Shown: piece after piece, positions 4,787-63,866 of the stretch
Numbering within the stretch: the stretch's first letter is position 1
Layout of the letters: every line of letters begins with the position of its first letter
Assembly: GCA_044356455.1 (NCBI GenBank)
Contig: JBIKWF010000008.1
Location: 15,304 to 79,303, forward strand
DNA length: 64,000 nucleotides
Origin: Bdellovibrionota bacterium
Lineage (GTDB): Bacteria > Bdellovibrionota_C > UBA2361 > JBGSMV01
Direction of reading: 5' to 3'
Notes under the pieces: model-generated
Seen by the model: the letters and a program-made list of their open reading frames with translations, nothing else
Told to the model about the DNA's origin: nothing
Databases searched by the model: none
Translations under genes and position numbers: made by a program

Positions 4787-5709
4787 AAATAAAAACACTT
4801 TCTGGGGCTTCCCTTCTTATTCTTTCCGCACTTGCAAACGCGGGGTGTGCCAATCAGAACTTTCGCGATATTACGTCAACGGTACTTGGTCAGACAGGAT
4901 ATGTATCGGCATCCCAAGCCGAGTCCTTGCTCAGGGCAGGAGAGGGAGTAGTTCAGGCTGCGACACCTCTTACTGAGGAGCAGGAATACTACCTCGGGCG
5001 AGGCGTGGCAGCGGCTATTTTGGGACGTTACAAGCCTCTGAAAAATGACGCAGTCCAGCGCTATGTAAACGTAGTTGGCCGCACGGTGGCGGCGTTTTCC
5101 GATCGGCCCGACACCTTCAAAGGATATCGATTCTTGGTTCTCGACTCCAATGAAGTAAACGCAATGGCAGCCCCCTCGGGTTTTATTTTCATCACGCGGG
5201 GTTTACTTCGTAATCTAAAGACTGAGGATGAACTTGCAGGAGTGCTTGCGCATGAAGTTGCGCATGTCGTGCATGCGGACGGTGTGAATGCAATTTCAAG
5301 CAGCAAGCTCACAAAGGCCGTGGCCTTAGTGGGTCAGGAAGTGCTTGCTTCCCAGGGGCCCGCAGAGCTTGCCGAAATAACAAACCTCTTTAGTGAGAGT
5401 GTGAATGAAGTCGTTGAGACTCTGGTCACGAACGGCTATTCGAGATCTCAGGAGTATGACGCTGACGAGTATGCTCGCGAGCTTTTGCTCCGCGCAGGGT
5501 ATGACCCTGATGCGCTCGCGCGCTCCCTTCAGACGCTTGAGAACGTGAGCGCCAGCGCGCAAGGTCTTGGCGGGTGGTATTCAACTCATCCTAGTCCCAA
5601 GAAACGTCGCGAGGAACTTGAAGAGGAAACTTCGAAGAGTCCCACGGCAAGCATTGGGCTGGGGACGCGAACTGCGCGCTTCAAGAATGGGGTTTCTGGT
5701 CTAAAATGA
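4783..5709 (+). CDS. M48 family Zn-metallopeptidase lipoprotein (BepA/YfgC-like)
   Basis: Signal peptide plus lipobox LANAGC. HEXXH motif HEVAHVVH. Confidence 0.8.
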   Translation: MKIKTLSGASLLILSALANAGCANQNFRDITSTVLGQTGYVSASQAESLLRAGEGVVQAATPLTEEQEYYLGRGVAAAILGRYKPLKNDAVQRYVNVVGRTVAAFSDRPDTFKGYRFLVLDSNEVNAMAAPSGFIFITRGLLRNLKTEDELAGVLAHEVAHVVHADGVNAISSSKLTKAVALVGQEVLASQGPAELAEITNLFSESVNEVVETLVTNGYSRSQEYDADEYARELLLRAGYDPDALARSLQTLENVSASAQGLGGWYSTHPSPKKRREELEEETSKSPTASIGLGTRTARFKNGVSGLK

Positions 5710-5761
5710 GTGATTGCTGGGCACGGAAACGGTAGATCGGTGGGTTGCCTCGCGTAGTAAC

Positions 5762-24301: not shown

Positions 24302-25690
24302 CTACCAAAGTGCGGCGGGGTCTGCCGTAGTGGTGAGCGCAAGTCCCTGAGCTCCCGCGCCCCCCGCAGTAGTAGAATCATTTCCAATATTACCTGGATT
24401 CACGGTGCCTCCGTCGCCACCTGCGCCTCCGCTTCCGCCTCCGGAGCCTCCGCCTAGATACACAAATCCAGAGATACTTCCTGCCCCTCCCGCTGATCCT
24501 CCGGCTCCGCCATTTACCGTAATGCTGCCCGAGTTAGTGGCTGAGGGAGCAATTAAATGAACAATTCCTCCTCCGCCCCCGCCGCCTGCCGCAAAGCCGG
24601 TTGAGTTGGAGTCCGTCGCAAGTAATGCGCCACCGGCTCCTCCATTTGCAATAAGCGCACCGGAATTGCTGACCGAAGTACCCGAAGCGAGAAGTATAAA
24701 ACCTCCCCCACCTCCTCCTCGTGCGGGGCCCGGGGCGCCTGTTCCGTGTGCTGAGATACTCCCTTGATTCACCACGCCTCCGGCGCAAAGCACCGCGAAG
24801 TTACCTCCTCCATCACCTCCTGTGTCTGCACTTTCGCGAAAGCCATTTCCTCCTCCCAGAATGCCGAGCTTGAGTAGTTGCCGAGCAACTCCAGAGTAAA
24901 GAGCCAAGCCGCCTGTGCCCCCAAGGGCGGCCAGTCCTCCAGAACTCACGGTGCTTGGGCGAACGCCATTTTCGCCGAATCGAGGATGGTCGCGTAGGGC
25001 GGGATTAACGCTAATTGTTCCCTCATTCTGGAAACTACCAGTGCAGCGAATCACAGTACCTGAATGGACAGTCAGCGTGGACCCACTGGCAATCGTGAAA
25101 TTGGTATATTGAGGATTCGGGTCATTGAGAGTGACACTCCCCACAATAGATCTTCCGCCGGCCGATCCATCGCCGTAAATGCGCAGAGTCCCATCGCTTC
25201 CCGCGGTGCCGGGTGCTCCGGTTGAGCCAACTGGTCCTTGTGGCCCCGTTGCGCCTTGAGCTCCGGTAGGTCCGGCCGGACCTTGCGGACCAGTGAGCCC
25301 GGTTTCTCCCTGCGGGCCCGCCTCTCCTTGCTCCCCTGTTAACCCTTGTAGCCCCTGGTCCCCGCGTAATTCATCAAAAGCGATCTCTGTTTCGCCCAAA
25401 GCGACTGAGCAACGTTTGCGTACTTTGATAGACCCATTGCTCGTTCGAATGCAGAATTTATAACCGGGAAGACTGCTTGATTTACGCCTCAAGTCCTCAA
25501 CGTAGCATAGAGCTCCCTCACGCCAGTCTCGGCATTCTGATTTACCGAGCCCAAGGCTTGTACAATCATAAGGGCAGAGGTGTACGCTCACGGAGGAGGG
25601 AATTTGAGCGAGCGCCTCGGATATGTCCCAAATGGGGAGCAAGGAAAGCAATGCAAGAGTTCTCAGAATTCGAGAGTGAATGCGCAGCAT
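24302..25690 (-). CDS. secreted collagen-like / glycine-rich beta-helix-like protein
   Basis: Signal peptide and a Cys-containing N-domain. A short Gly-X-Y run GDQGLQGLTGEQGEAGPQGETGLTGPQGPAGPTGAQG... is followed by poly-Gly-rich repeats GGAGG/GGGGGG. Confidence 0.65.
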   Translation of the reverse strand: MLRIHSRILRTLALLSLLPIWDISEALAQIPSSVSVHLCPYDCTSLGLGKSECRDWREGALCYVEDLRRKSSSLPGYKFCIRTSNGSIKVRKRCSVALGETEIAFDELRGDQGLQGLTGEQGEAGPQGETGLTGPQGPAGPTGAQGATGPQGPVGSTGAPGTAGSDGTLRIYGDGSAGGRSIVGSVTLNDPNPQYTNFTIASGSTLTVHSGTVIRCTGSFQNEGTISVNPALRDHPRFGENGVRPSTVSSGGLAALGGTGGLALYSGVARQLLKLGILGGGNGFRESADTGGDGGGNFAVLCAGGVVNQGSISAHGTGAPGPARGGGGGGFILLASGTSVSNSGALIANGGAGGALLATDSNSTGFAAGGGGGGGIVHLIAPSATNSGSITVNGGAGGSAGGAGSISGFVYLGGGSGGGSGGAGGDGGTVNPGNIGNDSTTAGGAGAQGLALTTTADPAALW

Positions 25691-44627: not shown

Positions 44628-46439
44628 CTACTCAAGCAACTGAAGCGCCAAAGCCGGAGCCTGATTCGCTTGTGCGAGAATCGCCGTTGCAATCTCCTTG
44701 AGCGTTCTCGTTTGAACCAATGCCGCGCTTTCGTTTGCGATATCAATATTCGTGATTCTTGCAGACGCCGCATCATAGTTCTCTTTTGAGGAGCTTAGGG
44801 TGTTCAGAGCTACTGCAAGCCGGCTCTGGGTACTTCCTATAGCACCAAGCTCTTTAGATACTCTCGCAAGCGTCGCATCAATCACCGATAACGAACCTAG
44901 CGCTTCTGCGCGCGTCGTAAGATTGAGGCGCTGCATCGAGGTTACTTGCTCGCTGTTAGCAAGCCCGATTCTAAAGCCCGAGCTTGCGTTAGTAGAGACG
45001 AGGTAGTCGGCGGTGCCATCTCCGTTGAAATCACCAATCGAGAGATTACTTGCGAATGGAAGGACAACAGTTCCAAAAGTATTCGAAGCGCCAAATGTCC
45101 CATCCGCTGAGCCGTACCTGCCCTGCATCGTGCCATTTGCATTCACGAGAATGTCTGAGACTCCGTCTGCGTTGAGGTCAGCCACCTTGAGCGTATATAT
45201 AAAGCCACCGAAGGCTATCGAAGCTGCGTCCGCGAAGGTTCCGTCCCCCCGCCCCAAGTTTACCAAAGCGTTCGAACCTGAAGTGCCAATCGAATCAAGA
45301 ATTCCGTCGCGGTTAAAATCGGCGAGCTGCCGAGAGGAGGTCAATCCTGACGCTATCCCCGAACCAAAGGTGCCATTGCCCGAACCAAAGTAGCTTTTCA
45401 ATCCAGTAAGAATATCTATGCTCCCATTTCCGTCTAAATCTCCCAGCAGAGCAGCGCTGCCCCCAGTTCCTGAGATAGTTTGCGTCGGGGTGGATGAGAA
45501 AGACCCTGAGGCCGAGGCAAGGTGCACCGTATGAGCTCCGGAGGCTCCGACTAACAAGTCCGTTCGCCCATCATTGTTCAAATCCGCGGCCGCAAGACTG
45601 GAAATACCCGAAAATCCGCCGACCGCAGAGGTCCCAAAGCTCCCAGTTCCTAAATTGGTATAGATGACGACAGAAACCGAGGTCACGTCTTGAGCTGCGA
45701 TATCTATCCGACCATCCCCATTAAAGTCGCCAATAACGACTTGTGCAGAAGCAGCAGTGGAGCCTTGGGCCTGAGAAGTAAAAGTGCCGTTACTGTTACC
45801 GAAATAGGTAACAATATTCCCCAACTCAGATGTGACAACGTCCATAATGCCGTCGCCATTAAAATCAGCTTCAACCTGAGAATTTACAAAATTGGCGCCA
45901 CCTAAGTTGCTGCTCACAAAGGTTCCGTTCCCGGCAGTCCGGTCCAACTCAGTTCCAAGCCCGAATCCAATTGAGCCTGAAGTCCCCAGTCCTAGTTGTA
46001 GTCTCAACTCGCGCAGATCTCCGTCGAGAAGATTAATTCCGTTGTACGTCACACTGCTGAAGATCCGGTTGTACTCTTCAGTAAGCGCAGCCGCTTCTTT
46101 GTCCGATGATATCCTCTGAGTTCTGGAAAACGACCCGTTAGATGCTCCTATCGCAAGCTCTCTTAGCCGAAGAAGAATTCCCGATCCGCTCGTGAGCGCG
46201 CCCTCGGCAATAGAAAGTGCACTGATACCGTCGTTCGCATTTCTAATCGCCTGCGAGAAAATGCGGCTACTTACGTTAAGCTGGGAAGATACGGAGAGCC
46301 CCGCTGCATCGTCTGAAGCTCGGTTGATACGCATGCCGGAGGCCAGCCGCTCGAAGCTCAGCGACTCCGCCGACGTGGCTCGGTTCAACTGGCGCTGCGC
46401 CAGAAGAGAGGAAATGTTCGAACCAATTGAAATTGGCAT
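44628..46439 (-). CDS. fliC: flagellin with FG-GAP beta-propeller central domain
   Basis: Flagellin N-terminal region RINRASDDAAGLSVSSQL...NANDGISALSIAEGAL. Flagellin C-terminal region ends LAQANQAPALALQLL. About 7 FG-GAP repeats (DFNGDGIMDVV, DLNNDGRTDLL, DLDGNGSIDIL and others) replace the usual variable domain. Confidence 0.8.
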   Translation of the reverse strand: MPISIGSNISSLLAQRQLNRATSAESLSFERLASGMRINRASDDAAGLSVSSQLNVSSRIFSQAIRNANDGISALSIAEGALTSGSGILLRLRELAIGASNGSFSRTQRISSDKEAAALTEEYNRIFSSVTYNGINLLDGDLRELRLQLGLGTSGSIGFGLGTELDRTAGNGTFVSSNLGGANFVNSQVEADFNGDGIMDVVTSELGNIVTYFGNSNGTFTSQAQGSTAASAQVVIGDFNGDGRIDIAAQDVTSVSVVIYTNLGTGSFGTSAVGGFSGISSLAAADLNNDGRTDLLVGASGAHTVHLASASGSFSSTPTQTISGTGGSAALLGDLDGNGSIDILTGLKSYFGSGNGTFGSGIASGLTSSRQLADFNRDGILDSIGTSGSNALVNLGRGDGTFADAASIAFGGFIYTLKVADLNADGVSDILVNANGTMQGRYGSADGTFGASNTFGTVVLPFASNLSIGDFNGDGTADYLVSTNASSGFRIGLANSEQVTSMQRLNLTTRAEALGSLSVIDATLARVSKELGAIGSTQSRLAVALNTLSSSKENYDAASARITNIDIANESAALVQTRTLKEIATAILAQANQAPALALQLLE

Positions 46440-46510: not shown

Positions 46511-47140
46511 ATGATCTGGGCCATTTAAGAATGCCAACAAAACAAGTTACTCTTGGACTCATGACGAGGGCCCGCGCGTGCTAAGGCAGCTAAGCAGCTA
46601 GATTTATATGCAAAGTCATCACCTCGGGCGCAATGAAAACCAAAATCCTTAAGAAGTCTTCCTACTTCGAACGGATCTCCGCGGTATCTGACCAAACATT
46701 TTTCGCGGTGTTTCGATCGGGCAGCGCCCCAGGAGTCCTACCCTGCTCCGGAGCGGGTAAAGTTCCTAATTTTTGAATTCAATTGGTCGAGAGCCGCAAG
46801 TCGGTGCTCAGGCCCCCATGGCCACAAAAGATGGGTCTGCCTGGAGCCCTCTCCTTGCAATGAATAACTTCTCTGGGTTTCCCAGCGAGACCCTTGCGCT
46901 CCCTTGACGTCGAGATAGAACCTATCGATCTGCCTTGAGTACGGTCTTCGGCGTTCCCTCTTTTCAAAGACTTCTACATTTCCTTGGCACGCATTTTGCT
47001 CAGCCTCCTTAACGGGTGGTGAGAAAATGAAAGGTCACTGAAGTGCGCTAAACGCTTGAAGTGGTACGAGTTTAACTGAGTACCTCCTTGCATAGCACGA
47101 GGGCATCACAGCGACCTCATAGTCTCACTGAGAGGTTAGC

Positions 47141-50100
47141 TTGTTTAGTTCTTCTCATAACTTCGTAGTCCGAGGGGCGTGCCTATCGCTACTTTCCCTC
47201 CTTCTCGCATCTGCGCCTGCAATTGCTAGCCCTGGGCTTCCCGTTGGCTTTGCGCCACTTTATGGATCTTACGCTTGCCGCTTCGGAATCCCGAATCGTG
47301 TCGTTGAGTTCAGGCAGCGCGTCGTGTCCGGAAATTCTCAATACGCGCGCACGATTCCAAGCATAAAGTCGCTTATCATCAAAAGAGATAACGCAGTTCG
47401 TAGACGCTCCGAGGAGAGAAGCCAAAGAGTTAGAGAAGAGCTTGGCCGAGCCATAACGAAGTATGGAGAGCTCATACGTCTTTCGAGATATTGCCGCGAT
47501 TTGAGGCGTCCCGCGGCCTCCCCAACCCCGGCTCAAAGTGCAAGCCCTACACCTCTTCCGACAAGCACTTCCGTGCCATCTCCTTCGTCTAGTCCTACGC
47601 CTACCCTTGGAGTAGCTACTCCTCCTGGTATAGAGATTCCACCTGAGATTACCGCTACAAGTGCTCCCACAAAAACAGCGACACCCACGAGCACCTCACT
47701 ACCTTCGAAAACACCAACTGCGGTAGCTACCGTAACTTCTACCAAAACAGCGACCCCCACAGGAACGGCGACTCCAACAAAAACCCCTTCAGCTACTGCT
47801 ACAAAAACACCTACGGCAACTCCGACCAAGTCTGCAACTCCCACAAAAACAGCCACGCCCACCAAAACGCCTACCGCAACTTCAACAAAAACACCCACCC
47901 CTACGACATCGCCAACCCCGCCTCCTGATCCAACTGCGACACCCTTTGCGCCGCGTCCTTTGATTCAAGCCTCGGCTGCAACTTTCTACAGTGTTACCTA
48001 CACCGTGACGTACTACGTGCTTTCATTGGGGCAAGATAGGCCCGGTGAGGCCGCTCAAGTTTCAGTCGAGCCGGTGAACGCGGCGAATCCACATCGCGCA
48101 AGTGTTCGTGTGTATGACCCGAGCGAGAAGTTGCAGGTGCTCCAGCAAATAGAGGGGCAAGGCGGAGTGCAATCGAAATTCTCTCCGTCCCCGCAGCTAG
48201 AGCTTTCCTCAGGACCATTTCCTCTTGCCAAGAATGGGACCTATGAGGTGCGCATCAGCGGAAATTCGAATATTCGCGCCAAGCTAAACCTTCCTCAAGA
48301 GGTAGGATGGGGCATCTCGTTCCAAAACGGCTGGTTTAGACCTTTTGAGGGCCAGCAGCCTGTTATGTATACCTGGATTACACAGCATCCCACCCAGCCA
48401 CTTAAGCTTACGTTTGTTTCCTCCTCGCAGGTCCTTAACGTGGCTTTGCCTGGGAAAGATCTCACTCCGATCTATGATGCGGAGGGAAAAATTCTTCGCT
48501 GGGAACTAATCGTTCCACCTTCAAGTTCGCAGACTGGCTATGTTCAACAGGTGCAGCTGAGCGGGGGAAGCAATCTTCATTTCCAAGTCTCAGGCATGCC
48601 GTTTATCCTCAGTCGTAGCGCCGAAGAAGCGGCACAAATCGGAGGCGGGCTGCAGCGCGTAGCGGGAGGGCCCATGAGTGGCTACCTTATTGCGCATCCT
48701 TACCAACAGGCCATCGCAGAACTTCTACCTGAACTCGTAACGCGCTCAGGTAATGGCACGGTCCTGAGTGCGCTTCCAGGCGCGAACTATCCTGCAACTG
48801 TTTCCTCTTGCAAGGCACCGCAAGCTGATGAGGATGTGATAAAAAATCTTGAGGTGCTCTCCCATTACGGAGGCGTGCTTCCAGGCGCCAAGTGGGCACT
48901 GGGTTCTACCGGAGGGGTTTCTAATCAAGATCTTTCCCTTGCGAGTCCATGGCTAGGCGTGCTTGCAACCTCGCTGTTCAATAAACAGGAGTGCAGCTCC
49001 AACTTTGATTGCGCGAATGGGAGTGCCTGTGTCAATGCGCGCTGTGCCCAGCAGTTCTCACCACTAACCGATAGATGGGATCGTTTTCAGCCGATGGAGT
49101 ATCGGAGTGAAGACAACAGAAAATATAGTCTCTATGCTGGTAGGAGCCCGCGGGGGCATCTGCATTACGCCCTTGTGTGGGCCGCGGTCACAAGTCACCC
49201 GTGTAATCCCTACGGGCCCCTAAGTCCTGGCGAACCATTGCAATACCCTGAGCTGCTGTACCGCGGTGTCGCGGGGGCATTGGCAGATCTGATGGTGGTG
49301 ACTGAGGATGAAAATTTGGTAGGAACAAACGGTTCCCTATCAGACCCCTATCCAGGGTACGCTGGTTTTGCCCTTGAGAATACGATCCCCGTTTTCCACT
49401 TGGCCTCTCCCCACCTTCTTTCGGGTATGCCCGATACTATAAAGGGAGAAACTCTTGGATTGGGAGTATACAAGGCATGGAGAACTGGTCTTGAGCGTAT
49501 GGTGCAGCGGCACTACTACGATTACCTCACCTCAACAGGGAACCAGACAGCGCACCACCTGGTATCCTTTATGTCCTTCGCGCTTGGAGTTCAGGAGCCC
49601 AGCGATCGAGCTTTCTATGATGCTACAGCTCGGCGCTGGGCGGGAAGACTTTTTGAGTCGATTCGCCCTGCCGGATACCTCATCGAAAATGATGCGGTGT
49701 GTACCAGCTATATTGGTATCTCAACTAACATGATGGGACGGTATCTTGGACTTACGCGAACAAGTGAGGCTGGAACTGATGTAAAAGCCGAGGAGGCGAT
49801 AGCAAAAATTTTTGGGTTCTTCAATCACACGGTCTCAGTTGAGCCAGATGGCGGGAGCGTTCCAGGCTTTAACTTTAGCCACCGCATAGGAAGAGGTTTT
49901 GATACTCTGCAATACAATGGAGCCAAGGTAATGGCAGACGCGATTCCAGAAGTAGGCGTGTGGTCTCGATCCACACCAGCTAAGATTCCAGCTTTGCGGA
50001 CTTCCTTGCAAAGCTTGGCAGTTAGTTTTGATGCGAATGCAAGTAATATTCCCCTTGTCAGCTTTCCGTGGACACCAGATCGCGCAACACATTACTCTTC

Positions 50101-51007
50101 GGCCTTCTTGGGTGGGTACGTATACCCAGCCGAGGAAGAAGAATCCTTTGTGCGAAACTTTGGTGATGAGTACATCGCCGTGAAACGACCTTCGTACTTT
50201 GCTGGAATCTTTGTTGGAAAGCCTAAGGGGGGCTGGGGAGTTCTAGAGTTAAAAATTCGCGAGAATTATCGGAATCCCACCACTGAAAAGAAGCTGAATG
50301 AGGGAGGCGTCTCGGTTGAAGACCTCGCACCTGAGACGGGGGCAAGTATTAGCGCTTACAATTATAATCCTTACCTAGGGGGCGGCCTATCCTTGTTTAC
50401 TACCCCGGCATATGGGTCAGCAGTAGCGGGTACCACGTGGTCAGCGCTGGCTCAGCACGGGCTCGTTGCATGGCAAGGAGGTAAGCGTTATTGGAACGAT
50501 TATTATTCTACCCAATTTTTGCTCGACCAGGAGCAGGATGCTTTGACGGTGTCAGGCAGCATCGAAACGCTTCCGTTCGTTTACTCTCGCAACTACTCAT
50601 TCTTAGAAGATCGTCTCAGTATGACACTTACTATTCAGGCGACGCAGTCGATAAGCCTTGAGAAGTTTGCGGAGATTATTCCCGTGCCTACCTGCACGCG
50701 CGCAAATTGCAATGGAGCCATCAAGAATCGCAAGCTGCGAGGAGCCTTCCTTGATGTTACGGGTGGGGCGTCTCCGTCAAATGGTCAGGTCGTGACGGCC
50801 CAAAAAGTGCAAGTACTCGATCAGAATAGTAAGGGCGTAACTTTTGAATTTACTTCTGCCGTGCCGCTTAGTCTACAGAGGCATGGACTTCGTCACCTTT
50901 ATTACGACGATGAGTTCCAGGTCGGTCGCATCGAGGTTCAATTACCTACTACCTGGAGCGCTGGTCAGGTGTACACCCTTTCGTACTCACTTATTCCCAC
51001 TCCTTAG
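47141..51007 (+). CDS. large secreted protein with Pro/Thr-rich mucin-like linker
   Basis: Signal peptide. A 140-aa linker ([31 protein letters not shown]) encoded by 47540-47930. About 1000 aa C-terminal region with no recognisable family. Confidence 0.6.
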
Positions 51008-53848: not shown

Positions 53849-55129
53849 ATGCGTACATGGTTATTTGTCTGCGCTCTCATTCTTACATGGTCTCAAGTTT
53901 CAACATCAGCCGCTCAGGGGAGCGCCTCAGAGCAAGTGGCGCAGAGCGGATTCTGCAGTGCGCTCGATCGTAAAGACTACCGCGTTGCAAAGACGCTCTT
54001 TGACCAAGGTGGAGTTGATCTCAAAAAGCCGTGCCAGAATTCCCTCTACGGCGAGGTGAGCCCCGAGATAACGCTCAATAATCTCGTGCATCTGCTCTCT
54101 CTCTCTTACGTTCGCTACAATAGGACAGATTTGGAGGATCTCGGCTTTCTTATACAAGAGTTTCTCAAGGTCAATGGAGGGATAAATGCGTATGGCCAAG
54201 AGAGCACACCTCTATTCTGGCGTTATGGCGATAAAATTGCTTCCGAGCCCACGGTAGCCAAGGTGTTCATAGAGGCAGGAGCGGATTTTAGGCTCGCAGC
54301 TAAGGCTCCTGAATACGGAACAGGTGACTTTCAGAGGTTCGATTCGCCGACCACAGACAAAACCGGCAGGACTTTTCTCATGCAGCTATGCTGGATAGGA
54401 AACTTTGATCAGATTTTCGCGCCCCCTGCGCGGCACGAATACAATCGCGAGGAAAAAAAACTCCAGCAAAGCATCCTCCGTAAGGTAATAGCGAATGCCG
54501 ATCTAAAAGCCCAGGACGCCTACGGGAGAACTGCGCTTCATCACTGCACTCTTCAAGGAAGCGTCAACGCCATAAGGGAACTTATAAAAGCGGGCGCTGA
54601 TGCGGACCAGAAGGATGCCGCAGGCTTAACGCCGAAAGACTATGCAAAGGCTGCGGGAAAGACTGATCTCTCCACCTTTTCTCGTCCCGCAGAAGAGCAG
54701 GTAACTGCGGTCCCTGCGCCACTTGAGAGTGACACCTCTGGCGTCGAAGCCGTGGAGCCCAACCCAACGCCGGCTTCTGCCGCGACCGATGCGAGCAAAG
54801 ATTTGCAGCTTGCGAAGTCCGCGATTGAGGCAGGGCAGTTTAGGAATGCCCGTGCACTTCTGCAGAATCTTGTTGGATTGGGAAATCCTGCTGCCATGTA
54901 CGAGCTCGGTCGCTTGATCATTCGCGGTGAAGGCGGAGCACAGGACTTCGAGGAAGCAAGAAAACTTTGGGAGCGCGCTGCTGACAAGGAACATGGTGAG
55001 AGTCTCGTTGCCCTCGCCAAACTGTATGTGTACGGAGATGGCGTCGCAAAAAGTGAAATGGTTGCCAAGATGTATCTGAAACGCGCCAAAGATGCGGGCG
55101 CACAAATTCCTCAGAACCTAATTGAATAG
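53849..55129 (+). CDS. secreted ankyrin-repeat plus Sel1/TPR-like repeat protein
   Basis: Signal peptide. ANK repeats DAYGRTALHHCTLQGSVNAIRELIKAGADADQKDAAGLTP. Sel1 repeats AMYELGRLIIRGEGGAQDFEEARKLWERAA and LAKLYVYGDGVAKSEMVAKMYLKRAKDAG. Confidence 0.75.
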   Translation: MRTWLFVCALILTWSQVSTSAAQGSASEQVAQSGFCSALDRKDYRVAKTLFDQGGVDLKKPCQNSLYGEVSPEITLNNLVHLLSLSYVRYNRTDLEDLGFLIQEFLKVNGGINAYGQESTPLFWRYGDKIASEPTVAKVFIEAGADFRLAAKAPEYGTGDFQRFDSPTTDKTGRTFLMQLCWIGNFDQIFAPPARHEYNREEKKLQQSILRKVIANADLKAQDAYGRTALHHCTLQGSVNAIRELIKAGADADQKDAAGLTPKDYAKAAGKTDLSTFSRPAEEQVTAVPAPLESDTSGVEAVEPNPTPASAATDASKDLQLAKSAIEAGQFRNARALLQNLVGLGNPAAMYELGRLIIRGEGGAQDFEEARKLWERAADKEHGESLVALAKLYVYGDGVAKSEMVAKMYLKRAKDAGAQIPQNLIE

Positions 55130-55131
55130 GG

Positions 55132-55869
55132 ATGTGTATGATGATCTCTCGACTCTGTATCCAACTGCGACGAGGACTTGTCGCTATGGTCCTGATCGCA
55201 CTTGCCGGATGTGGACCAGACCCCAAAGATCCCGTGTATTCAAATTACGAGTCTGCCCTGCGTGCAGGTGCAGAGCAACGCCGCCTCTGTGTCAACCTTG
55301 CTCGCCACTCGCTTGTTGGAAGGGTTCGGCAGGCGATTACAGAACCTGTAGTGGAGCTCGCGAGTTCGCGCTGGGGTTCGTGGGAGGAACTAGTAGCGGC
55401 TGGGATGTACCGCAAGGAGGAGGTGCGGGAGAATTACGACTATAGGATATCATACGATCAGGGCCTGAGAATTCCTGTGCTCGGCTACCGCTACACACTT
55501 ACTGAACCGTACAAGAAATTTGTTGGAACTTCAGACTCCGTTTTCTCTGATAGCAATCAGAGCCTCTGCCTTGCTAGCTACGAGTTTGACAAAGTCGTCT
55601 CCGCCACCGAGCCGCGTATAGTTTTTGGCGGTCTTACCGCCGTTTCGGTAACTTACTCGCTTGCGCTCGGCAGCCTACCCGATGAATTTGCACAGTCACG
55701 GACGACGATGGAGAAGTACTTCCCTGAGGTTTTCAAGGAGGTCTCTTCCAAGACTGAAGATGCCACTCTCCTTTTGACGAAGGAAGGCTGGAAGCTCCAG
55801 AAGATGATTAAAGACCCCACTGAATTGATACGGGCAACACACGCTACGCGTAATGGTGAAGAGGAGTAA
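55132..55869 (+). CDS. hypothetical lipoprotein
   Basis: Lipobox ALAGCGP. Confidence 0.4.
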   Translation: MCMMISRLCIQLRRGLVAMVLIALAGCGPDPKDPVYSNYESALRAGAEQRRLCVNLARHSLVGRVRQAITEPVVELASSRWGSWEELVAAGMYRKEEVRENYDYRISYDQGLRIPVLGYRYTLTEPYKKFVGTSDSVFSDSNQSLCLASYEFDKVVSATEPRIVFGGLTAVSVTYSLALGSLPDEFAQSRTTMEKYFPEVFKEVSSKTEDATLLLTKEGWKLQKMIKDPTELIRATHATRNGEEE

Positions 55870-56530
55870 GGAGTATCCTATGATTGCACGTTCAGAACTT
55901 TTTGGCCCGGCCCTTGCTTTTGTGGTGATGGTGTTTTCAGTTGGATGCGCCCCTGTCAGCCGAAATTCCTTTAGTGCATCATCCGCAGAATGTTCGAGGA
56001 ATTTCTCCTCTTCTGGGAATATGCTTATCGGACAACAATTTCGAACCGATGCCACCGTGCAAGGGGCCAGGGCAAGAGAGGTACTTGAGCGTTTAAGGAC
56101 CCGCATGAAGCACGAGGGCTATCTGCTTGTTGAAATGAACCTCGAAGATGGCGTCTTACAAGGGCGCTCAAGGACAACCTCGGGATCCTACACAGAGCCT
56201 GTAGTGATTGGAGCCGAGCAGGACGGGAAAGATGTGCTCGTTACTATGAGCGCCTCCACTCTCGCTGGTCAGTATACGCCCGAAAGTGCTGCTCACGAGG
56301 AATTCTGTAAGTTCGTTACGGAGGCACAGAAACTTGCCTATAGTTATAAAGAGCCAGAGAGAAGAGTAATCGAAGCGCGAAGCTCGGCTCCCGTAAAGAA
56401 GGCAAAGGTACGTGCCGTGGTCGATTCGCCTAAGGCAGGGAGCTCGCTGGCTGCAAAGAAACCAGCGTCAAATGCCGAAACGAAAAAACCTGAGCCGCAA
56501 GCCGATGAAAGCACCAAGAGCCGTTACTGA
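55853..56530 (+). CDS. hypothetical lipoprotein
   Basis: Lipobox-like FSVGCAP. Low-complexity Lys-rich C-terminus. Confidence 0.4.
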   Translation: MVKRSKEYPMIARSELFGPALAFVVMVFSVGCAPVSRNSFSASSAECSRNFSSSGNMLIGQQFRTDATVQGARAREVLERLRTRMKHEGYLLVEMNLEDGVLQGRSRTTSGSYTEPVVIGAEQDGKDVLVTMSASTLAGQYTPESAAHEEFCKFVTEAQKLAYSYKEPERRVIEARSSAPVKKAKVRAVVDSPKAGSSLAAKKPASNAETKKPEPQADESTKSRY

Positions 56531-56547: not shown

Positions 56548-58035
56548 TCACGCGGAGCCACCATTTGACGTGTCTCCATCCTTAAGCACAAAACGCGCTG
56601 AAAGCATGGCGACGGTGCGAGCGAGTTTAGCTTTCTCAACAGAAGCGAGCACCTCCGCGAAAGGTTTATACGCCTGAGGCGCTTCATCCAGAGGATATCT
56701 CCGGCAGTTACTGAGAATGTCTGCCCTGTCTAGCTGCGCATCAACCTCTCCCTGGATAAGTTCACGCTGCGCTCTTGAGCGGCTCATGGCACGCCCAGCC
56801 CCATGGTTGACGCTGTAACAACTGAGCGCCGCACCAGGCTCTGCAACCATGACCGCGGAGCCAGCGGCGGGATTTCCAGGAAGCAAAATGGGGTGGCCAC
56901 TCGCTTCGTAGCGTGTTCCCTCAAGTCCGGGATGTCCTGCGGGGAATGCTCTCGTTGCTCCTTTGCGATGAACCCACGTGGGCTCTCCTTCAACGATCTC
57001 CTTGCGCGCAATATTATGGCTAATGAAATAAACCAAGTCGCCCGAAAGCCCAGGGAAAATTTCCTGAAATGCCTCAAGAACAAGAGCATTAATGAGCAAG
57101 TGATTGAGCGTCGCAAAGTTTGCGCCGAGCGCAAGGTCATCTAAATAGCAATCGGCCTCACTCGTTCCAAGAGGAGCATACACGAGCTCACGATCGCCGC
57201 CCGGGAAAGGAATTCCGCTTGCCGCGAATTTACCCTGGAGTGTCTTAAATTGCTGTTGTGCGAGGAGGTACCCAAAGCCGCGCGAGCCGCAATGCGAAAG
57301 AAAAGCGATTTTACCGTCGCTGAGACCAAAGCTCTTGGCGATAGCTTCTTCGCCGCGAGTAACCCTCACGGTATTGGCTTCACCAAAGTGATTTCCACCA
57401 CCGTAGGAACCTAGCTGCTGAATCTTTGATTCAAGCACGTCACTTCCCCAGGAACCTTCGACCAGCTCAAGACGCTTGCCAAGAGACTGAGAAGTTCCGT
57501 CATTTCCGAAATGTCGCGAGTCCTCACACGCATCCGTCCATGCGAAGGGAATACCCAACGCAGAGCATACTTCGGCTGAGGCGCCTTCGATGGCAAGTCT
57601 GCGTCCCGTGGCCAAATCCACATGCCGTGCTTTCCTCACAGAACGCTGCCCTTTGCCGGAGCCGGTAGGAAGGCGCTGCATGAGAGCGTTTATCACTGCG
57701 CGCCTCGCTTCTTTGCTGAGAAGTTCCTCTTCGGGAAGATTCGTCTGAAGAAGGCTCATCGAGCATTTGATGTCTACGCCCACGGGAGCTGGATAGATAT
57801 GTGTCGGCGAGGTGAGGACGCTGCCGACAGGCGCTCCGTATCCCGCGTGTGCATCAGGATTGAGGACTACCTTGGTGACCCCGGGAGCAAGTCGGCTATT
57901 TATGGCTTGCTGCAGGCACTTTTCGTCGAAGGAGGTGCGAATACTCTCGGTGCCAATGACCGTAATGGGAGTCACCGAAGAGTCAGGAACGGGGAGAATT
58001 CCCACCGCTTCTTCAACTGGAATTACCTTATTCAT
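56548..58035 (-). CDS. rtcB: RNA 3'-phosphate ligase RtcB
   Basis: Motifs PDAHAGYG, HNI/HCGSRG and C-terminal NHGAGR. 495 aa. Confidence 0.9.
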   Translation of the reverse strand: MNKVIPVEEAVGILPVPDSSVTPITVIGTESIRTSFDEKCLQQAINSRLAPGVTKVVLNPDAHAGYGAPVGSVLTSPTHIYPAPVGVDIKCSMSLLQTNLPEEELLSKEARRAVINALMQRLPTGSGKGQRSVRKARHVDLATGRRLAIEGASAEVCSALGIPFAWTDACEDSRHFGNDGTSQSLGKRLELVEGSWGSDVLESKIQQLGSYGGGNHFGEANTVRVTRGEEAIAKSFGLSDGKIAFLSHCGSRGFGYLLAQQQFKTLQGKFAASGIPFPGGDRELVYAPLGTSEADCYLDDLALGANFATLNHLLINALVLEAFQEIFPGLSGDLVYFISHNIARKEIVEGEPTWVHRKGATRAFPAGHPGLEGTRYEASGHPILLPGNPAAGSAVMVAEPGAALSCYSVNHGAGRAMSRSRAQRELIQGEVDAQLDRADILSNCRRYPLDEAPQAYKPFAEVLASVEKAKLARTVAMLSARFVLKDGDTSNGGSA

Positions 58036-58147
58036 AGAACGTCTCTCTTAATTTTTACTTACTGTTTAAATCTCCCAATTCTTCCCGTGGAAGCAATAAA
58101 AAAGCTGCATTTCTCCAGGAATGACTTGCGCATCAGAGCAGCGAGAA

Positions 58148-58300
58148 CTAGGGAATCCCTGAAAACATAGCTATTTTATTCTGTTCTCTCTGTGAGCTCT
58201 GTGTCCTCTGTGGTTTTTCAACAATTTAAATCAACCACAGAGGGCGCAGAGTTCACAGAGAGAAGAAATGAAGTATCGCGGTCTTTCAGAGGTTCCCTAG
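58148..58300. repeat. MITE-like dispersed repeat, copy F (subfamily with ctctgtggtt...aaccacagagg palindromic core)
   Basis: Termini ctagggaatccctgaaaacatag ... ctttcagaggttccctag. It lies inside the operon between the SPFH gene and rtcB. Confidence 0.7.
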
Positions 58301-58363
58301 AGGCGTGCCCCCCCCGGCCGGTGCGGAGTGTGTGCGCTCATGGCACACACTCCGGGTTCCGAA

Positions 58364-59485
58364 TTACTTCGTGAGAGAAACGAGGCCTTTCATGACTCCG
58401 TCAAGTCCATCGTAGACCGTAAGCTTCCCTACCTTCTCACTAATACGCTCGACCGCCTCAAGCTCCTTTAACCTAAGGAGCACGGGATTATTCTCCATCA
58501 TCCTCGCGGTATTCATAAGCGAACGCGTGGCGGCGGTCTCTTCGCGCCGGCGAATATTCTGAGCCTGGGCAGCCTTTTCAGCTTCAACTACCTGGTTCAG
58601 GAGTGCGCGCATTTCACCGGGAAGGATGAGATCCTTAACCCCGATACGCACGATCTCGATTCCGCACACCTCCATCGCAGCCTTAATCTCGGAAGCAAGA
58701 ACTCTATTAAGAAGCTCCTTGTTCTCAAGCAACTCATCCAGAGTCTTCTCTCCCACGGCCTGCCGAAGTGCGAGCTGGGCGCAGCGATAAATCTCGCCCA
58801 GTATATCGCTTAGCGCGCGTGTTGCCTTGACCGCGTCTACCAAACGATAACTCACGCTCAAGTTCACCCGAAGAGATACCTTGTCCTTTGTGAGCATCTC
58901 CTGTCCGCTTACCTCAAGTGCAGTCAAGCGAGTATCTAGAATGCTCACAGACAAATCGCGCTGGGCGCGCCAGAATGCGTAGTGCCCAGGTGCGAGTTCA
59001 CGGACAATCACTCCCGATTCGAGCAGCAATCCCCTACATTGCTCAGGAACGCTCACACGCAGAATCTTGGGATCCGCCGCCAAACCAGACAAATTGCGCA
59101 CCGTCTCGCGGTCCAGCTCATACCCCTCCGAGATCTCGAACCTTTTGACGTTGATCTCAGCAAGCCCTTTCCAAAAGAGACGCTCTTCGCTCGGCATCAC
59201 AAGACAAGAAGCTTGCGAATTGAGGTACACCACGGCCACTTCACGAGGCCCTGTTTCAACCTTAACCAAGAACTCTGCAAGCTCAGAGGTGAAGCGATTC
59301 GCAAGCAGCTGGGCAATGGGCCCACGAAGCTCTACCTCCTTAGCGATATCGGAAATCGCAACGGCGACCTTACAAAGGGGGTTTAAGAATCGGTAGCTTC
59401 CAGGGGCAAGGATGCGTTCAAAGCGCTTATCTTTATAAAGAATCCCACGTTCGGTGCTTCCAATAACAATCTTTTTCATATTCAC
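58364..59485 (-). CDS. SPFH/band-7 (slipin-like) protein with about 170-aa N-terminal extension, co-transcribed with rtcB
   Basis: SPFH core LTKDKVSLRVNLSVSYRLVD...GIEIVRIGVKDLILPGEM...EAEKAAQAQ. RBS AGGAG 8 nt upstream of the ATG. Confidence 0.8.
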   Translation of the reverse strand: MNMKKIVIGSTERGILYKDKRFERILAPGSYRFLNPLCKVAVAISDIAKEVELRGPIAQLLANRFTSELAEFLVKVETGPREVAVVYLNSQASCLVMPSEERLFWKGLAEINVKRFEISEGYELDRETVRNLSGLAADPKILRVSVPEQCRGLLLESGVIVRELAPGHYAFWRAQRDLSVSILDTRLTALEVSGQEMLTKDKVSLRVNLSVSYRLVDAVKATRALSDILGEIYRCAQLALRQAVGEKTLDELLENKELLNRVLASEIKAAMEVCGIEIVRIGVKDLILPGEMRALLNQVVEAEKAAQAQNIRRREETAATRSLMNTARMMENNPVLLRLKELEAVERISEKVGKLTVYDGLDGVMKGLVSLTK

Positions 59486-59700
59486 ATCTCCTTAGCTCAA
59501 CTACACATTCAAAAAGGGAGGAGACCTCCTCACGAAAACAGCGCGGGGCTTGAGCGTGTCATCGGGGGGTGCTTCGATGTCCACACCATCGAAGCGCCGC
59601 AGAACGAGGCACCACTTCTCAAAACTACAAGGCGCTGCCCGCGCCAAGGCTTGCGCCTTGCTTGGGAATCTCCTCTGTTACAGTGAGAGCTTTCGCTCTC

Positions 59701-59772
59701 AGGACATAGGCAGGAGTCGAACCTGCTACACATCGATTAACACTCGATTGCTCTACCCATGAGCTACTATGG
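59701..59772 (-). ncRNA. tRNA-Asn(GUU)-like cloverleaf element, possibly a pseudo-tRNA or Y-RNA/tRNA-like regulatory RNA
   Basis: Hand fold of the minus strand. D-arm GCTC-ATGGGTA-GAGC. Anticodon stem ATCGA/TCGAT with loop GTGTTAA (anticodon GTT). T-arm GCAGG-TTCGACT-CCTGC. The acceptor stem pairs at only 5 of 7 positions (1:72 and 2:71 mismatched), and there is no encoded CCA. Confidence 0.5.
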
Positions 59773-59887
59773 TGACCGGTCCTCTTCGACGCGGTACGCG
59801 GCTGAGACTAGATTAGTTATCCAACTCTGCTGCGCCGCCCGGCCTTGCTGAAGCCAGTCGTCCAGTGAACAGTCGAAGCTATATAGA

Positions 59888-59903
59888 GCATCAAATGTGC
59901 CAC
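59888..59903 (-). promoter_or_regulatory. sigma-54 (-24/-12) promoter for the tRNA-like element, SPFH gene and rtcB
   Basis: Minus strand reads TGGCAC-ATTTG-ATGC with exact GG/GC spacing. It lies about 100 bp from the divergent rtcR start, as expected for an RtcR-dependent promoter. Confidence 0.55.
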
Positions 59904-59952
59904 GGCTTAATATGCTGAAATATTTAGCTTTATATTGAGTAGAGCGGCCCGC

Positions 59953-59981
59953 TTACATATCTATTGAGATAGTTCTATAAT
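59953..59981 (+). promoter_or_regulatory. candidate sigma-70 promoter of rtcR (leaderless or near-leaderless)
   Basis: TTACAT-N17-TATAAT. The -10 box ends 7 nt before the rtcR ATG at 59989. Confidence 0.35.
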
Positions 59982-59988
59982 TAAAGAT

Positions 59989-61596
59989 ATGAATCGAGTT
60001 GCCTTTGGCTTTTTAGGAACCAAGCTTGATGCCTTTGGGGGCTTTGGCGAGAAGCGCTTAAAAACCTGGCGTCCTTCGGTGGCGCTGGGCCTCGACCAGG
60101 CTCTTGGGCTTAGCCGGTTTGAGCTCTGGTACAATGAGCGCTTCGCGCGGGTTGCCAAGCTCGTTAAAGACGACATCGAAGAACAGCGAGTAGGAATTCA
60201 GGTGATTCTGCGCGAGGCATCTATTCGCGACCCATGGAATTTTGAGGAGGTGTACAGCTTTCTTTTTGATTTTAGTACGAGCTACCCCTTCAAAACCGAG
60301 AGCGAAGAATACTTCATACATCTCACCACCGGTACGCATGTCGCGCAAATCTGTCTCTTTCTTTTAACTGAGTCGCGGCATTTTCCTGGAAAGCTTGTTC
60401 AAACGAATCCACGAGGCAAGCAGACCGAAGAAGAATTGAGCATCATCGACCTTGACCTCTCCAACTATGACAAACTTGCAAGACGCTTTGAGCAGAAACG
60501 AGGAGCCGACCTAGAACTCCTTAAAGCGGGAATCAAAACTCTCAGTGCCTCATTCAATTCATTAATTTCTGAAATTGAAGTAGTAGCGCGTGCAAGTAGC
60601 GATCCGCTATTGCTTCTCGGACCCACGGGAGCGGGAAAGTCAAAGCTCGCCCAGCAGATCTATCTTCTCAAGCAATCCCAGCACCGCGTTCAGGGAGAAT
60701 TTGTAGATGTGAATTGCGCGACCATACGGGGAGAACAAGCCATGTCTGCCCTTTTTGGACATGCCAAGGGGGCTTTTACGGGAGCCATTGGTAAACGCGA
60801 TGGGTTATTAAAAAAGGCGCATAAAGGCCTGCTCTTTCTGGACGAGATCGGCGAACTCGGTCTTGACGAGCAAGCGATGCTTCTTCGAGCAATAGAAGAG
60901 AAACGGTTTTTCCCCCTCGGGAGCGACCAGGAGGAGCGTAGCGATTTCCAGCTCATTTCGGGAACTAATCGCGACCTTAACGAGAGAGTCAGCGCCGGGC
61001 TATTTCGAGAGGACCTTTTGCGGCGTATTGATATTTGGAGCTTTGAACTTCCGGCACTTAGAGACCGTAAGGAGGATATAGAGCCGAATCTTGAATTCGA
61101 GCTAAAAAAATTCGAGGAACGTTCAGGTCGTCGAATTACCTTTAGCAGTGAGGCAAAGAAAGCATTTCTTAGCTTTGCCACAGGTCCTCTCGCTCTTTGG
61201 CCTGGAAACTTTCGCGACTTAAACGCCTCGGTGACTCGAATGGCTACACTTGCTCCTCAAGGGCGAATTAGTATGGAAGTCGTGGAAGTTGAGACTCAAA
61301 GACTTACTCGGGCATGGCGCTATCCGCAGAAAGCCGAATCCGCTCTTGGAGAAGTGGAATCAATTATTCGCTTGGCAGGACTTTCTCCTGAGCTTGTCGA
61401 TCCCTTTGACAGGCCACAGCTTGCTGCGGTGCTGCAGGCGCTTGCCCGTGCTCGTTCAATTGCAGAGGCCGGACGTGAGCTTTTTGCAGTTTCGCGGAGG
61501 GAACGTTCAGTGGTTAATGACTCTGACAGGCTCAGGAAATACCTAAACCGATTTGGAATAGATGCGAGGCGGATTGTGGGGACCAATACTCGTTAA
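59989..61596 (+). CDS. rtcR: sigma-54-dependent transcriptional activator RtcR (CARF-AAA+-HTH)
   Basis: 535 aa. Walker A GPTGAGKS and sigma-54-contact motif GHAKGAFTGA. An N-terminal non-receiver, CARF-like domain. Divergent from the rtcB operon. Confidence 0.85.
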   Translation: MNRVAFGFLGTKLDAFGGFGEKRLKTWRPSVALGLDQALGLSRFELWYNERFARVAKLVKDDIEEQRVGIQVILREASIRDPWNFEEVYSFLFDFSTSYPFKTESEEYFIHLTTGTHVAQICLFLLTESRHFPGKLVQTNPRGKQTEEELSIIDLDLSNYDKLARRFEQKRGADLELLKAGIKTLSASFNSLISEIEVVARASSDPLLLLGPTGAGKSKLAQQIYLLKQSQHRVQGEFVDVNCATIRGEQAMSALFGHAKGAFTGAIGKRDGLLKKAHKGLLFLDEIGELGLDEQAMLLRAIEEKRFFPLGSDQEERSDFQLISGTNRDLNERVSAGLFREDLLRRIDIWSFELPALRDRKEDIEPNLEFELKKFEERSGRRITFSSEAKKAFLSFATGPLALWPGNFRDLNASVTRMATLAPQGRISMEVVEVETQRLTRAWRYPQKAESALGEVESIIRLAGLSPELVDPFDRPQLAAVLQALARARSIAEAGRELFAVSRRERSVVNDSDRLRKYLNRFGIDARRIVGTNTR

Positions 61597-61638: not shown

Positions 61639-61804
61639 CCTAGGTTTCTGCGTCGCAGAAACCTAGGGCGGCTCTAAAAAACTTTAATATTCTATTTTCT
61701 CTCTCTGTGAACTCTGTGCCCTCTGTGGTTGATTTAAATTATTGAAAAACCACAGAGGACACAGAGAAAAAATAATATATCGAGGTTTTTCAGAAGTTCC
61801 TTAG
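61639..61804. repeat. MITE-like dispersed repeat, copy G
   Basis: Starts with the perfect palindrome cctaggtttctgcgtcgcagaaacctagg, then ctagggcggctctaaaaaac ... tttttcagaagttccttag. The right terminus contains the ABC-F stop codon. Confidence 0.65.
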
Positions 61805-63770: not shown

Positions 63771-63866
63771 CCTCTGTGGTTGATTTAAATTATGGAAAAC
63801 CATAGAGGACACAGAGTTCACAGAGAGAAAAGAATAAAATATCGAGGTTTTTCAGGGAGTCCCTAG
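63771..63866. repeat. MITE-like dispersed repeat, copy H (5'-truncated)
   Basis: Core cctctgtggttgatttaaattatggaaaaccatagaggacacagag and right terminus tttttcagggagtccctag. No left terminus is present. Confidence 0.55.

Follow-up and report, generated by a model that had tools for sequence, protein, structure and literature searches.

The RtcR locus encodes a structured RNA, an SPFH protein and RtcB

We analysed a stretch of 64,000 nucleotides (nt), hereafter the window, from a Bdellovibrionota bacterium (GenBank assembly GCA_044356455.1, contig JBIKWF010000008.1, positions 15,304 to 79,303). It contains rtcR, the gene of an activator of RNA repair, and a short divergent operon. Along the minus strand, a predicted sigma-54 promoter is followed by a composite RNA that includes a tRNA-like element, then by the gene of an SPFH/Band-7 protein and by rtcB, which encodes an RNA ligase (Table 1). 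The gene beyond rtcB (55853-56530, plus strand) is convergent to it, so the operon ends at rtcB. An earlier reading made from the nucleotides alone (the sequence-only reading) had described this same order of elements; the list of open reading frames (ORFs), Pfam, Aragorn and Rfam agree with it. It had also remarked on the absence of RtcA. Searched by tblastn with Pseudomonas peli queries, the 64-kb window yields no RtcA (best E = 2), RlaP or zf_Tbcl protein, and rtcA is found neither in the operon nor just outside it. No TROVE domain appeared in a non-exhaustive Pfam scan of 17 window ORFs; the operon itself encodes only SPFH and RtcB.

An association of Band-7, b7a-tRNA and RtcB was predicted computationally by Burroughs and Aravind in 2016, according to a preprint by Wang et al. 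that cites it (bioRxiv 10.1101/312249). Our literature search found no mention of b7a-tRNA beyond that preprint. The sequence-only reading had taken the locus for a non-canonical, unstudied variant of the Rtc module: experimentally it is indeed uncharacterised, but the association had been foreseen, and an SPFH gene was already known inside the rtc locus of Pseudomonas aeruginosa (PA4582/PaFlo8, in the order rtcR, PA4582, rtcB, PA4584, rtcA). The 2016 article, in Nucleic Acids Research, reportedly proposes that the RNA and the protein form a scaffold/cofactor pair akin to Ro and Y RNA.

Table 1 Features of the rtcR-SPFH-rtcB locus, in window coordinates.
Feature	Position	Strand	Remarks
Composite structured RNA	59876-59511	-	about 365 nt; operon leader and/or separate noncoding RNA; supported by covariation
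5' domain of the RNA	59876-59774	-	about 100 nt; three-way junction, conserved GGCUUC-N-AAGGCC hairpin, bulged long helix
tRNA-like module	59773-59702	-	b7a-tRNA type; Aragorn; Rfam tRNA, 46.4 bits, E = 1e-6
GAAA-capped short hairpin	59701-59684	-	helix 9, directly after the tRNA-like module; compensatory changes in 5 of 7 pairs
3' domain of the RNA	59681-59515	-	closed multi-helix domain; model R1, 132 bits
Terminator-like hairpin GAGGAGGUCUCCUCC and U5	59531-59511	-	terminator scan; competes with the long-range closing helix
SPFH/Band-7 gene ("slipin family")	59485 (GTG) or 59479 (ATG) to 58364	-	soluble protein, 373 or 371 amino acids (aa)
rtcB	58035-56548	-	495 aa; 3'-phosphate/5'-OH RNA ligase of archaeal/eukaryotic-like type
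rtcR	59989-61596	+	sigma-54 enhancer-binding activator; N-terminal CARF-type RtcR domain, then Sigma54_activat
Divergent control region	59903-59988		AT-rich; between rtcR and the sigma-54 promoter
Predicted sigma-54 promoter TGGCACatttgaTGCT	59902-59887	-	TGGCAC-N6-TGCT (-24 GG / -12 GC); spacing correct
Inverted repeat of REP/MITE type (repetitive extragenic palindrome/miniature inverted-repeat transposable element)	58184-58264		SPFH-rtcB spacer; 32-nt arms, 91% complementary

A large multi-domain RNA surrounds the tRNA-like element

The tRNA-like element sits at the centre of a large RNA of several domains, whose structure has strong covariation support. We aligned the seven available orthologous leaders. 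Conservation begins at about position 59876 and ends with a GA-rich/CU-rich hairpin and a U-tract, which leave about 20 nt to the ribosome-binding site of the SPFH gene. Of the 103 pairs that RNAalifold proposed, 60 carry compensatory changes; the inclusion of the acceptor stem brings the structure to 108 pairs in 15 helices. Paired cells amount to 90.8%, against about 42% when the partners are slid, and compensatory double changes occur in 62 pairs, against 14-22 in the slid controls. None of 500 shuffles matched the observed pairing values.

The tRNA-shaped RNA had been thought to be the first transcribed element. It is preceded by the structured 5' domain, whose closing helix stops exactly at the acceptor stem. 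A covariance model of this domain (R2), which scores the window sequence at 88 bits, was iterated once and the resulting model (R3) was searched against about 1 Mb of loci at E ≤ 1. Of 27 matches, 25 lie upstream of an SPFH gene on its own strand, and they end 4-62 nt before the tRNA-like gene where Aragorn called one. The matches come from Gammaproteobacteria, Burkholderiales (Betaproteobacteria) and Moduliflexus, with examples at loci L071 (2.7e-12), L055 (1.8e-10) and L064 (1.9e-6), as well as L056, L057, L060 and L067. Across the 27 sequences, in an alignment fitted to the model, 20 of the 24 pairs covary.

On the other side of the tRNA-like module, the closing helix of the 3' domain (59670-59659 with 59529-59518) pairs GAGGAG..UUCC with GGAG..CUCCUC and thereby recruits both arms of the terminator-like hairpin. 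Helices 10-15 of this domain carry 4-8 covarying pairs each. The local hairpin can pair in all seven orthologues with zero covariation in either register, whereas the long-range helix covaries at six of ten pairs; for want of covariation we rejected the hairpin as a conserved element and kept it as an alternative conformer only.

The 3'-domain model R1 found its own clade and, beyond it, two weak matches at the correct place (L055 and L014, E about 0.4). As R1 stayed within its clade, the demonstrable homology between lineages covers the 5' domain and the tRNA-like module only. Six Burkholderiales loci have a closed multi-helix 3' domain of their own, with 20 of 57 pairs compensatory, and the three-part design thus recurs. 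Between their 5' domain and tRNA-like module, the betaproteobacterial leaders (L043, L049, L062 and L027) also hold GGTTCGATTCC, an additional orphan hairpin that resembles a T-arm. A permissive Rfam scan of the window leader returned only tRNA and nothing credible for the flanking domains; Y-RNA families gave no match even at E ≤ 5.

The tRNA-like module has a conserved elbow and a variable anticodon

This module is the only tRNA-like element that Aragorn and Rfam find in the whole window, 217 nt upstream of the SPFH GTG codon at 59485. Its D-arm and T-arm are intact, with GG in the D loop and UUCGA in the T loop, and its 7-nt anticodon loop reads GUU. In the acceptor stem, 1-72 and 2-71 are mismatches, and CCA is not encoded. 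In the alignment the acceptor helix is 79.5% paired: three of its six pairs depart by unpaired cells, and 3-5 base pairs (bp) are formed in the window clade.

The arms are invariant among orthologues while the anticodon varies (GUU, AAG, UGU, GAU, GUA and others). Across the seven orthologues five different anticodons are read; the loop of one orthologue is irregular. We considered whether the anticodon loop forms a pseudoknot with the flanking domains; complementary 5-6-mers occur in the seven orthologues at inconsistent positions and were judged to be due to chance.

The RNA and the SPFH gene co-occur across phyla

The sequence-only reading had suggested a survey of homologous rtcR neighbourhoods for SPFH and tRNA-like genes; our survey covered homologous SPFH loci. 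A genome scan for SPFH homologues returned 80 loci, and 85 loci were fetched. At 64 of the 75 loci with enough upstream DNA, Aragorn calls a tRNA-like gene upstream of the SPFH start, at most 800 nt away and on the same strand, in a set that covers Gamma- and Betaproteobacteria, Chloroflexota, Acidobacteriota, Moduliflexus and Bdellovibrionales. In these elements the consensus of D-arm and T-arm is kept, CCA is mostly absent, the anticodons are of every kind and some loop lengths are abnormal. Among the anticodons are AAG, AUU, ACA, AUA, AAU and AGU, all unusual for bacterial tRNA sets. With unconstrained and unusual anticodons, abnormal loops and mostly no CCA, the tRNA-likes are therefore not decoding tRNAs.

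Around the SPFH gene in the 85 loci we counted RtcB about 50 times, RtcA 10 times and RlaP 9 times. Most loci lack RtcR and a sigma-54 promoter, and most lack RtcA. At loci with no adjacent RtcB, the genes that follow downstream are unrelated and the pair of RNA and SPFH is retained; it is therefore the pair, and not the ligase, that forms the invariant core, as with Ro and Y RNA, RtcB being a frequent partner. It had been supposed that SPFH takes the place of RtcA. The two co-occur in the 10 loci with RtcA, those of Pseudomonas and Undibacterium among them, and SPFH is thus no substitute for RtcA. In its place within the operon, SPFH with its RNA matches Rsr with the Y RNAs of Salmonella.

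The closest genome is a metagenome-assembled genome of an uncultured Bdellovibrionales (identity 69% for SPFH, 74% for RtcB and 68% for RtcR). Nine relatives, with SPFH identities of 58-75%, share one layout: rtcR, a gap of about 470-580 nt, SPFH, an RtcB of 495-541 aa, then unrelated or convergent genes. RtcA is not called beside the module in any of the nine, and tblastn on the six with DNA is also negative. The flanks of the module differ in each relative. Recurring among unrelated flanks, this four-part arrangement suggests that the four parts suffice for function.

Other lineages elaborate the plan. The P. peli locus L074 runs rtcR, sigma-54 promoter, two tRNA-likes, SPFH, zf_Tbcl, RtcB, RlaP, an ORF with no Pfam match and RtcA. 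There (5613-5755), and in the Pseudomonas locus L075 (5615-5758), the two tRNA-likes stand in tandem, the anticodon arm being swapped for a short capped hairpin.

Some SPFH/tRNA-like loci (L018, L023, L036, L015, L029, L047, L050 and L067) are located within large tRNA gene arrays, often with RtcB near; at L018, up to 28 tRNA genes lie within 6 kb of the SPFH gene. It is possible that such loci are islands of tRNA back-up plus repair. In three relatives (L084, 6679-8261, and the contigs of P0021 and P0026) the module adjoins toxin-antitoxin genes of the HipA/HTH, ParE and PIN/RHH types. This adjacency could be a coincidence or a link to RNA-targeting toxins.

The SPFH protein carries no membrane anchor

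Of the two possible starts, the ATG at 59479 is more likely, giving a protein of 371 aa: AAGGAG lies 8 nt upstream of it, and a 99%-identical database protein (P0001) has this same length. Pfam places Band_7 at residues 145-316 and finds no match in residues 1-143. The AlphaFold model of the full protein (confidence score pLDDT 83) predicts an all-β N-terminal module (residues 1-140/143), the SPFH domain (about 144-290) and long C-terminal helices (290-354). In structure, the SPFH domain and the C-terminal helices most resemble stomatin, HflK/C, prohibitin and flotillin, and their modelled succession has the layout of oligomerising SPFH scaffolds.

The N-terminal module had been called a novel domain. 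It has no Pfam match, but its conservation spans more than 5,000 homologues, and every weak structural neighbour of it is an SPFH protein. It opens with the motif ERG..PG.Y, as the SPFH domain does, and is doubled in the 506-aa members of the family; on account of this common start and of the two copies it looks like a duplicated, divergent β module derived from SPFH. The module is basic, with an isoelectric point of 8.9. A major vault protein (MVP)-type repeat and a known RNA-binding fold were also considered for it; structural comparison supported neither, and Pfam gave no match.

Full-length homologues number more than 5,700, at about 40-47% identity, and are named "slipin family protein" at NCBI. 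No hydrophobic or transmembrane segment was found in the window protein, whose maximum 19-residue Kyte-Doolittle score is 1.3.

RtcR and a conserved, predicted sigma-54 promoter

The regulator matches the Pfam families RtcR (2e-62) and Sigma54_activat (4.3e-47). It exceeds the cut-off of the NCBIfam equivalog RNA_repair_RtcR (NF038308) with 712.9 against 650 bits, and corresponds to RtcR--CARF_AAA_HTH in PADLOC (7.6e-224). In the PADLOC libraries of defence systems, RtcR is the sole part of the locus to be recognised.

The predicted promoter would start transcription at about 59876. It is one of two exact matches to the sigma-54 pattern in the window; with one mismatch allowed there are nine matches where 7.15 are expected. 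As this latter number is not above chance, support for the promoter rests on conservation: the -24 GG and -12 GC of the element are invariant in the seven orthologous loci. Comparable sites precede the tRNA-like genes in the RtcR-linked loci of Undibacterium, Burkholderiaceae and Pseudomonas. The second perfect match, TGGCACGCATTTTGCT, lies at 46985-47000 on the plus strand, about 140 nt upstream of an ORF (47141-51007, plus strand) that encodes 1288 aa with no Pfam match.

Next to the start of rtcR, the block ATTATATATCTATCT is partly conserved in the seven aligned leaders, and the binding sites of RtcR are presumed to lie within the control region. As to separate sigma-70 promoters for SPFH or rtcB, which the sequence-only reading had set against its own proposal, none within the operon on the minus strand is convincing; a weak match (9/12) sits inside the SPFH coding region.

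An archaeal-type RtcB

RtcB matches its Pfam family over its full length (2.6e-97, 327 bits). Its nearest relatives of solved structure are RtcB of Pyrococcus horikoshii (4e-57), that of Thermus thermophilus and human RTCB. The motifs PDAHAGYG, DIKC, GGGNHF, HCGSRG, SHNI and NHGAGR align with the P. horikoshii enzyme, and all catalytic motifs are kept; in the structure of P. horikoshii RtcB they bind the metal ions and form the His-GMP site. The RtcB of the window clade is only 26-28% identical to that of the gamma- and betaproteobacterial SPFH loci, and the protein scores below the NCBIfam cut-offs of the bacterial RtcB equivalogs.

The spacer between SPFH and rtcB measures 328 nt; five relatives have one of only about 27-116 nt, and the called spacer of L082 has about 205 nt. 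The inverted repeat in it consists of two copies of the core CTCTGTGAACTCTGCGCCCTCTGTGG, which has four intergenic copies in the window where none is expected; the same 26-mer recurs at 61703-61728 and 63800-63825. This repeat is outside the conserved module. A perfect 12-bp hairpin (58324-58354) stands 3' of the SPFH stop codon.

A putative RNA-protein scaffold or decoy for RNA repair

We lean, with moderate confidence, towards a Bdellovibrionota-type Band-7/b7a-tRNA/RtcB repair module under RtcR and sigma-54 control, in which an RNA-protein scaffold or decoy assists RtcB. The most likely role of the locus is that of supplying such a particle to RtcB upon damage. Gene content, promoter conservation, RNA structure and the co-occurrence of RNA and SPFH across phyla are shown by the data above; as to the induction signal, the read-through, the oligomerisation, the RNA binding and the role as decoy or scaffold, we infer the following course.

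The CARF domain of RtcR senses cleaved or nicked tRNA, and activation of RtcR in this way is established for Salmonella (PMC7790460, PMC10159003). The earlier idea that RtcR controls a tRNA mimic fits this sensing. Here, too, RNA damage would produce tRNA halves and nicked tRNAs with 2',3'-cyclic phosphate ends that activate RtcR, which would then open the sigma-54 promoter. The composite RNA would be transcribed first, from its 5' domain through the tRNA-like module and the hairpin to the closed 3' domain, and read-through of the weak hairpin and U-tract would give the SPFH and RtcB messages. Like SPFH proteins of solved structure, the soluble SPFH protein may oligomerise via its C-terminal helices, and it would bind the composite RNA, probably by its basic N-terminal β module. 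The resulting ribonucleoprotein could act as Ro and Y RNA are thought to act, concentrating broken RNAs and presenting them to RtcB for resealing. To tRNA-targeting nucleases its tRNA-shaped module may be a substrate mimic or a decoy; alternatively, it may act as an adaptor. A like idea exists for YrlA, and it counts in favour of the proposal together with the Anabaena regulon described below.

Three points weigh against this proposal. The composite RNA lies in the 5' untranslated region, and a purely cis-regulatory role therefore fits the anatomy equally well. The existence of b7a-tRNA was still without experimental confirmation, according to the 2018 preprint (bioRxiv 10.1101/312249). Finally, the P. 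aeruginosa ΔpaFlo8 mutant has no phenotype in assays of growth, virulence factors, motility, biofilm and peroxide; no tRNA-damaging stress was among them.

A wider form of the proposal is possible, and we put it forward only tentatively: the b7a element may be the core of an unrecognised class of multi-domain RNAs of about 350-500 nt, always accompanied by a soluble SPFH protein, which form Ro/Y- or vault-like ribonucleoproteins that sense or counter tRNA-targeting nucleases. Its members, in several phyla, would combine a closed 3' domain with a conserved 5' three-way junction and one or two tRNA-like modules.

Alternative explanations

We think it rather unlikely that the RNA acts chiefly in cis, as a leader with the function of a sentinel or attenuator, instead of being part of a trans-acting ribonucleoprotein. 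Such a leader would use the tRNA-like module of the 5' untranslated region as bait for tRNA-targeting nucleases or tRNA-binding factors, and the state of the module would set the balance between the closing helix (read-through or translation) and the terminator hairpin. The RNA does lie between promoter and SPFH ribosome-binding site in every locus, and in the window clade the same nucleotides of its 3' end can form either a terminator-like hairpin with U-tract or the covarying long-range helix. That RtcR and the sigma-54 promoter are missing from most SPFH loci, which therefore need another input, also speaks for it. However, the local hairpin does not covary; beta- and gammaproteobacterial loci have the closing helix and no U-tract terminator, and attenuation is therefore not universal; and at least 365 nt with three independently conserved domains go far beyond the needs of known attenuators. 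A cis-acting leader and a ribonucleoprotein are in any case compatible and do not exclude each other. The module might instead be a processing signal, at which RNase P and a 3' nuclease cut the transcript as in tRNA punctuation, freeing a small tRNA-like RNA and parting the 5' domain from the mRNA. The D/T elbow is the feature recognised by RNase P and tRNA-processing enzymes, and it is intact here; moreover, the 5' closing helix ends exactly at the acceptor stem. In the window clade, though, this stem is short and its top pairs are mismatched, and processing alone leaves unexplained the strict partnership with SPFH and the conserved flanking domains, so that we regard this explanation as unlikely.

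Two further readings concern the protein and the tRNA-like element by themselves. In the first, which agrees with the membrane-microdomain protein of the sequence-only reading, SPFH would be a conventional scaffold of stomatin, HflKC or flotillin type that ties RNA repair to the membrane. The resemblance of its SPFH domain and C-terminal helices to those proteins is real, but with no transmembrane segment or hydrophobic hairpin, a soluble β N-terminus and an operon in which neither the ORF list nor Pfam shows an NfeD gene, we find the idea very unlikely; since the protein lacks a membrane anchor, a microdomain function is unsupported. In the second, an ordinary tRNA-Asn(GUU) gene would lie by chance between rtcR and SPFH. 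Aragorn calls it tRNA-Asn and it passes the Rfam gathering score; against this stand the mismatched acceptor pairs, the missing CCA, anticodons that differ at the same position in otherwise near-identical orthologous RNAs and the embedding in a larger conserved structure, and an ordinary tRNA is effectively excluded.

The part that accessory scaffolds and RNAs play in bacterial RNA repair, be it Ro with Y RNA or SPFH with a tRNA-like RNA, is a standing question of the field. The window locus offers a minimal module for it, with regulator, RNA, SPFH and ligase only. New here are the evidence for a three-domain RNA of about 365 nt as a defined target, with a 5' domain that recurs in Gamma- and Betaproteobacteria, and a minimal Bdellovibrionota member, with archaeal-type RtcB and no RtcA, of a computationally predicted system. 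Should the tRNA-like module prove to be a sentinel or decoy for anticodon nucleases, the free variation of its anticodon loop would bear the mark of an arms race with toxins that cleave tRNA.

Other observations in the window

Away from the locus, a flagellin gene (44628-46439, minus strand) has an FG-GAP repeat insert between Flagellin_N and Flagellin_C. Two genes encode proteins with collagen triple-helix repeats, 19788-22445 (minus strand; 312 bits, unusual for bacteria) and 24302-25690 (minus strand). The product of 53849-55129 (plus strand) has a signal-like N-terminus with ankyrin and Sel1/TPR repeats, and is followed by ORFs 55132-55869 and 55853-56530, both with no Pfam match.

Comparison with known systems

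The locus shares with the Band-7/b7a-tRNA/RtcB system an SPFH gene beside RtcB, an adjacent tRNA-like noncoding RNA and a patchy distribution over several phyla. It differs by its RtcR/sigma-54 control, its archaeal/eukaryotic-like RtcB and the lack of RtcA and RlaP. In the window, conserved structured 5' and 3' domains flank the tRNA-like.

Membrane-anchored SPFH scaffolds (stomatin, HflK/C, flotillin, QmcA) have in common with the window protein the SPFH domain and C-terminal helix, but their N-terminal transmembrane segment or hydrophobic hairpin is absent from it. They are often paired with NfeD. With the vault particle, made of major vault protein, TEP1/TROVE and vault RNA, the likeness is one of analogy only: the N-terminal module showed no match to MVP repeats. 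In Anabaena, deletion of trcR derepresses alr0740, a "slipin family protein" (42-fold), together with rtcB (77-fold) and a 26-gene tRNA operon, and repression by TrcR lifts under translational stress (PMC10272220).

Among Pseudomonas loci, PA4581-PA4585 of P. aeruginosa likewise has its SPFH gene between rtcR and rtcB. L074 of P. peli resembles the window locus in the sigma-54 promoter and the tRNA-likes upstream of SPFH, and departs from it by two tRNA-likes in tandem, in which a hairpin replaces the anticodon arm, and by the presence of a zf_Tbcl protein, RlaP and RtcA. The rtcR/rtcBA locus of Escherichia coli has an equivalent RtcR, a divergent sigma-54 promoter and an RtcB ligase; the window locus lacks its RtcA, adds the SPFH gene and the composite RNA, and draws its RtcB from a different clade.

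The rsr-yrlBA-rtcBA operon of Salmonella (Ro60/Rsr with the Y RNAs YrlA and YrlB) likewise depends on RtcR and sigma-54; in it, too, a putative RNA-binding scaffold and a tRNA-mimicking noncoding RNA come ahead of rtcB. YrlA's tRNA-like domain has been proposed as a competitive inhibitor of anticodon nuclease, and redundancy of Band-7/b7a-tRNA with Rsr/YrlA is proposed in the Wang et al. preprint (bioRxiv 10.1101/312249). The window locus has SPFH in place of TROVE/Rsr, an RNA with no Y-RNA match in Rfam, and no RtcA. In Salmonella the RNA follows the gene of its protein, whereas here it precedes it.

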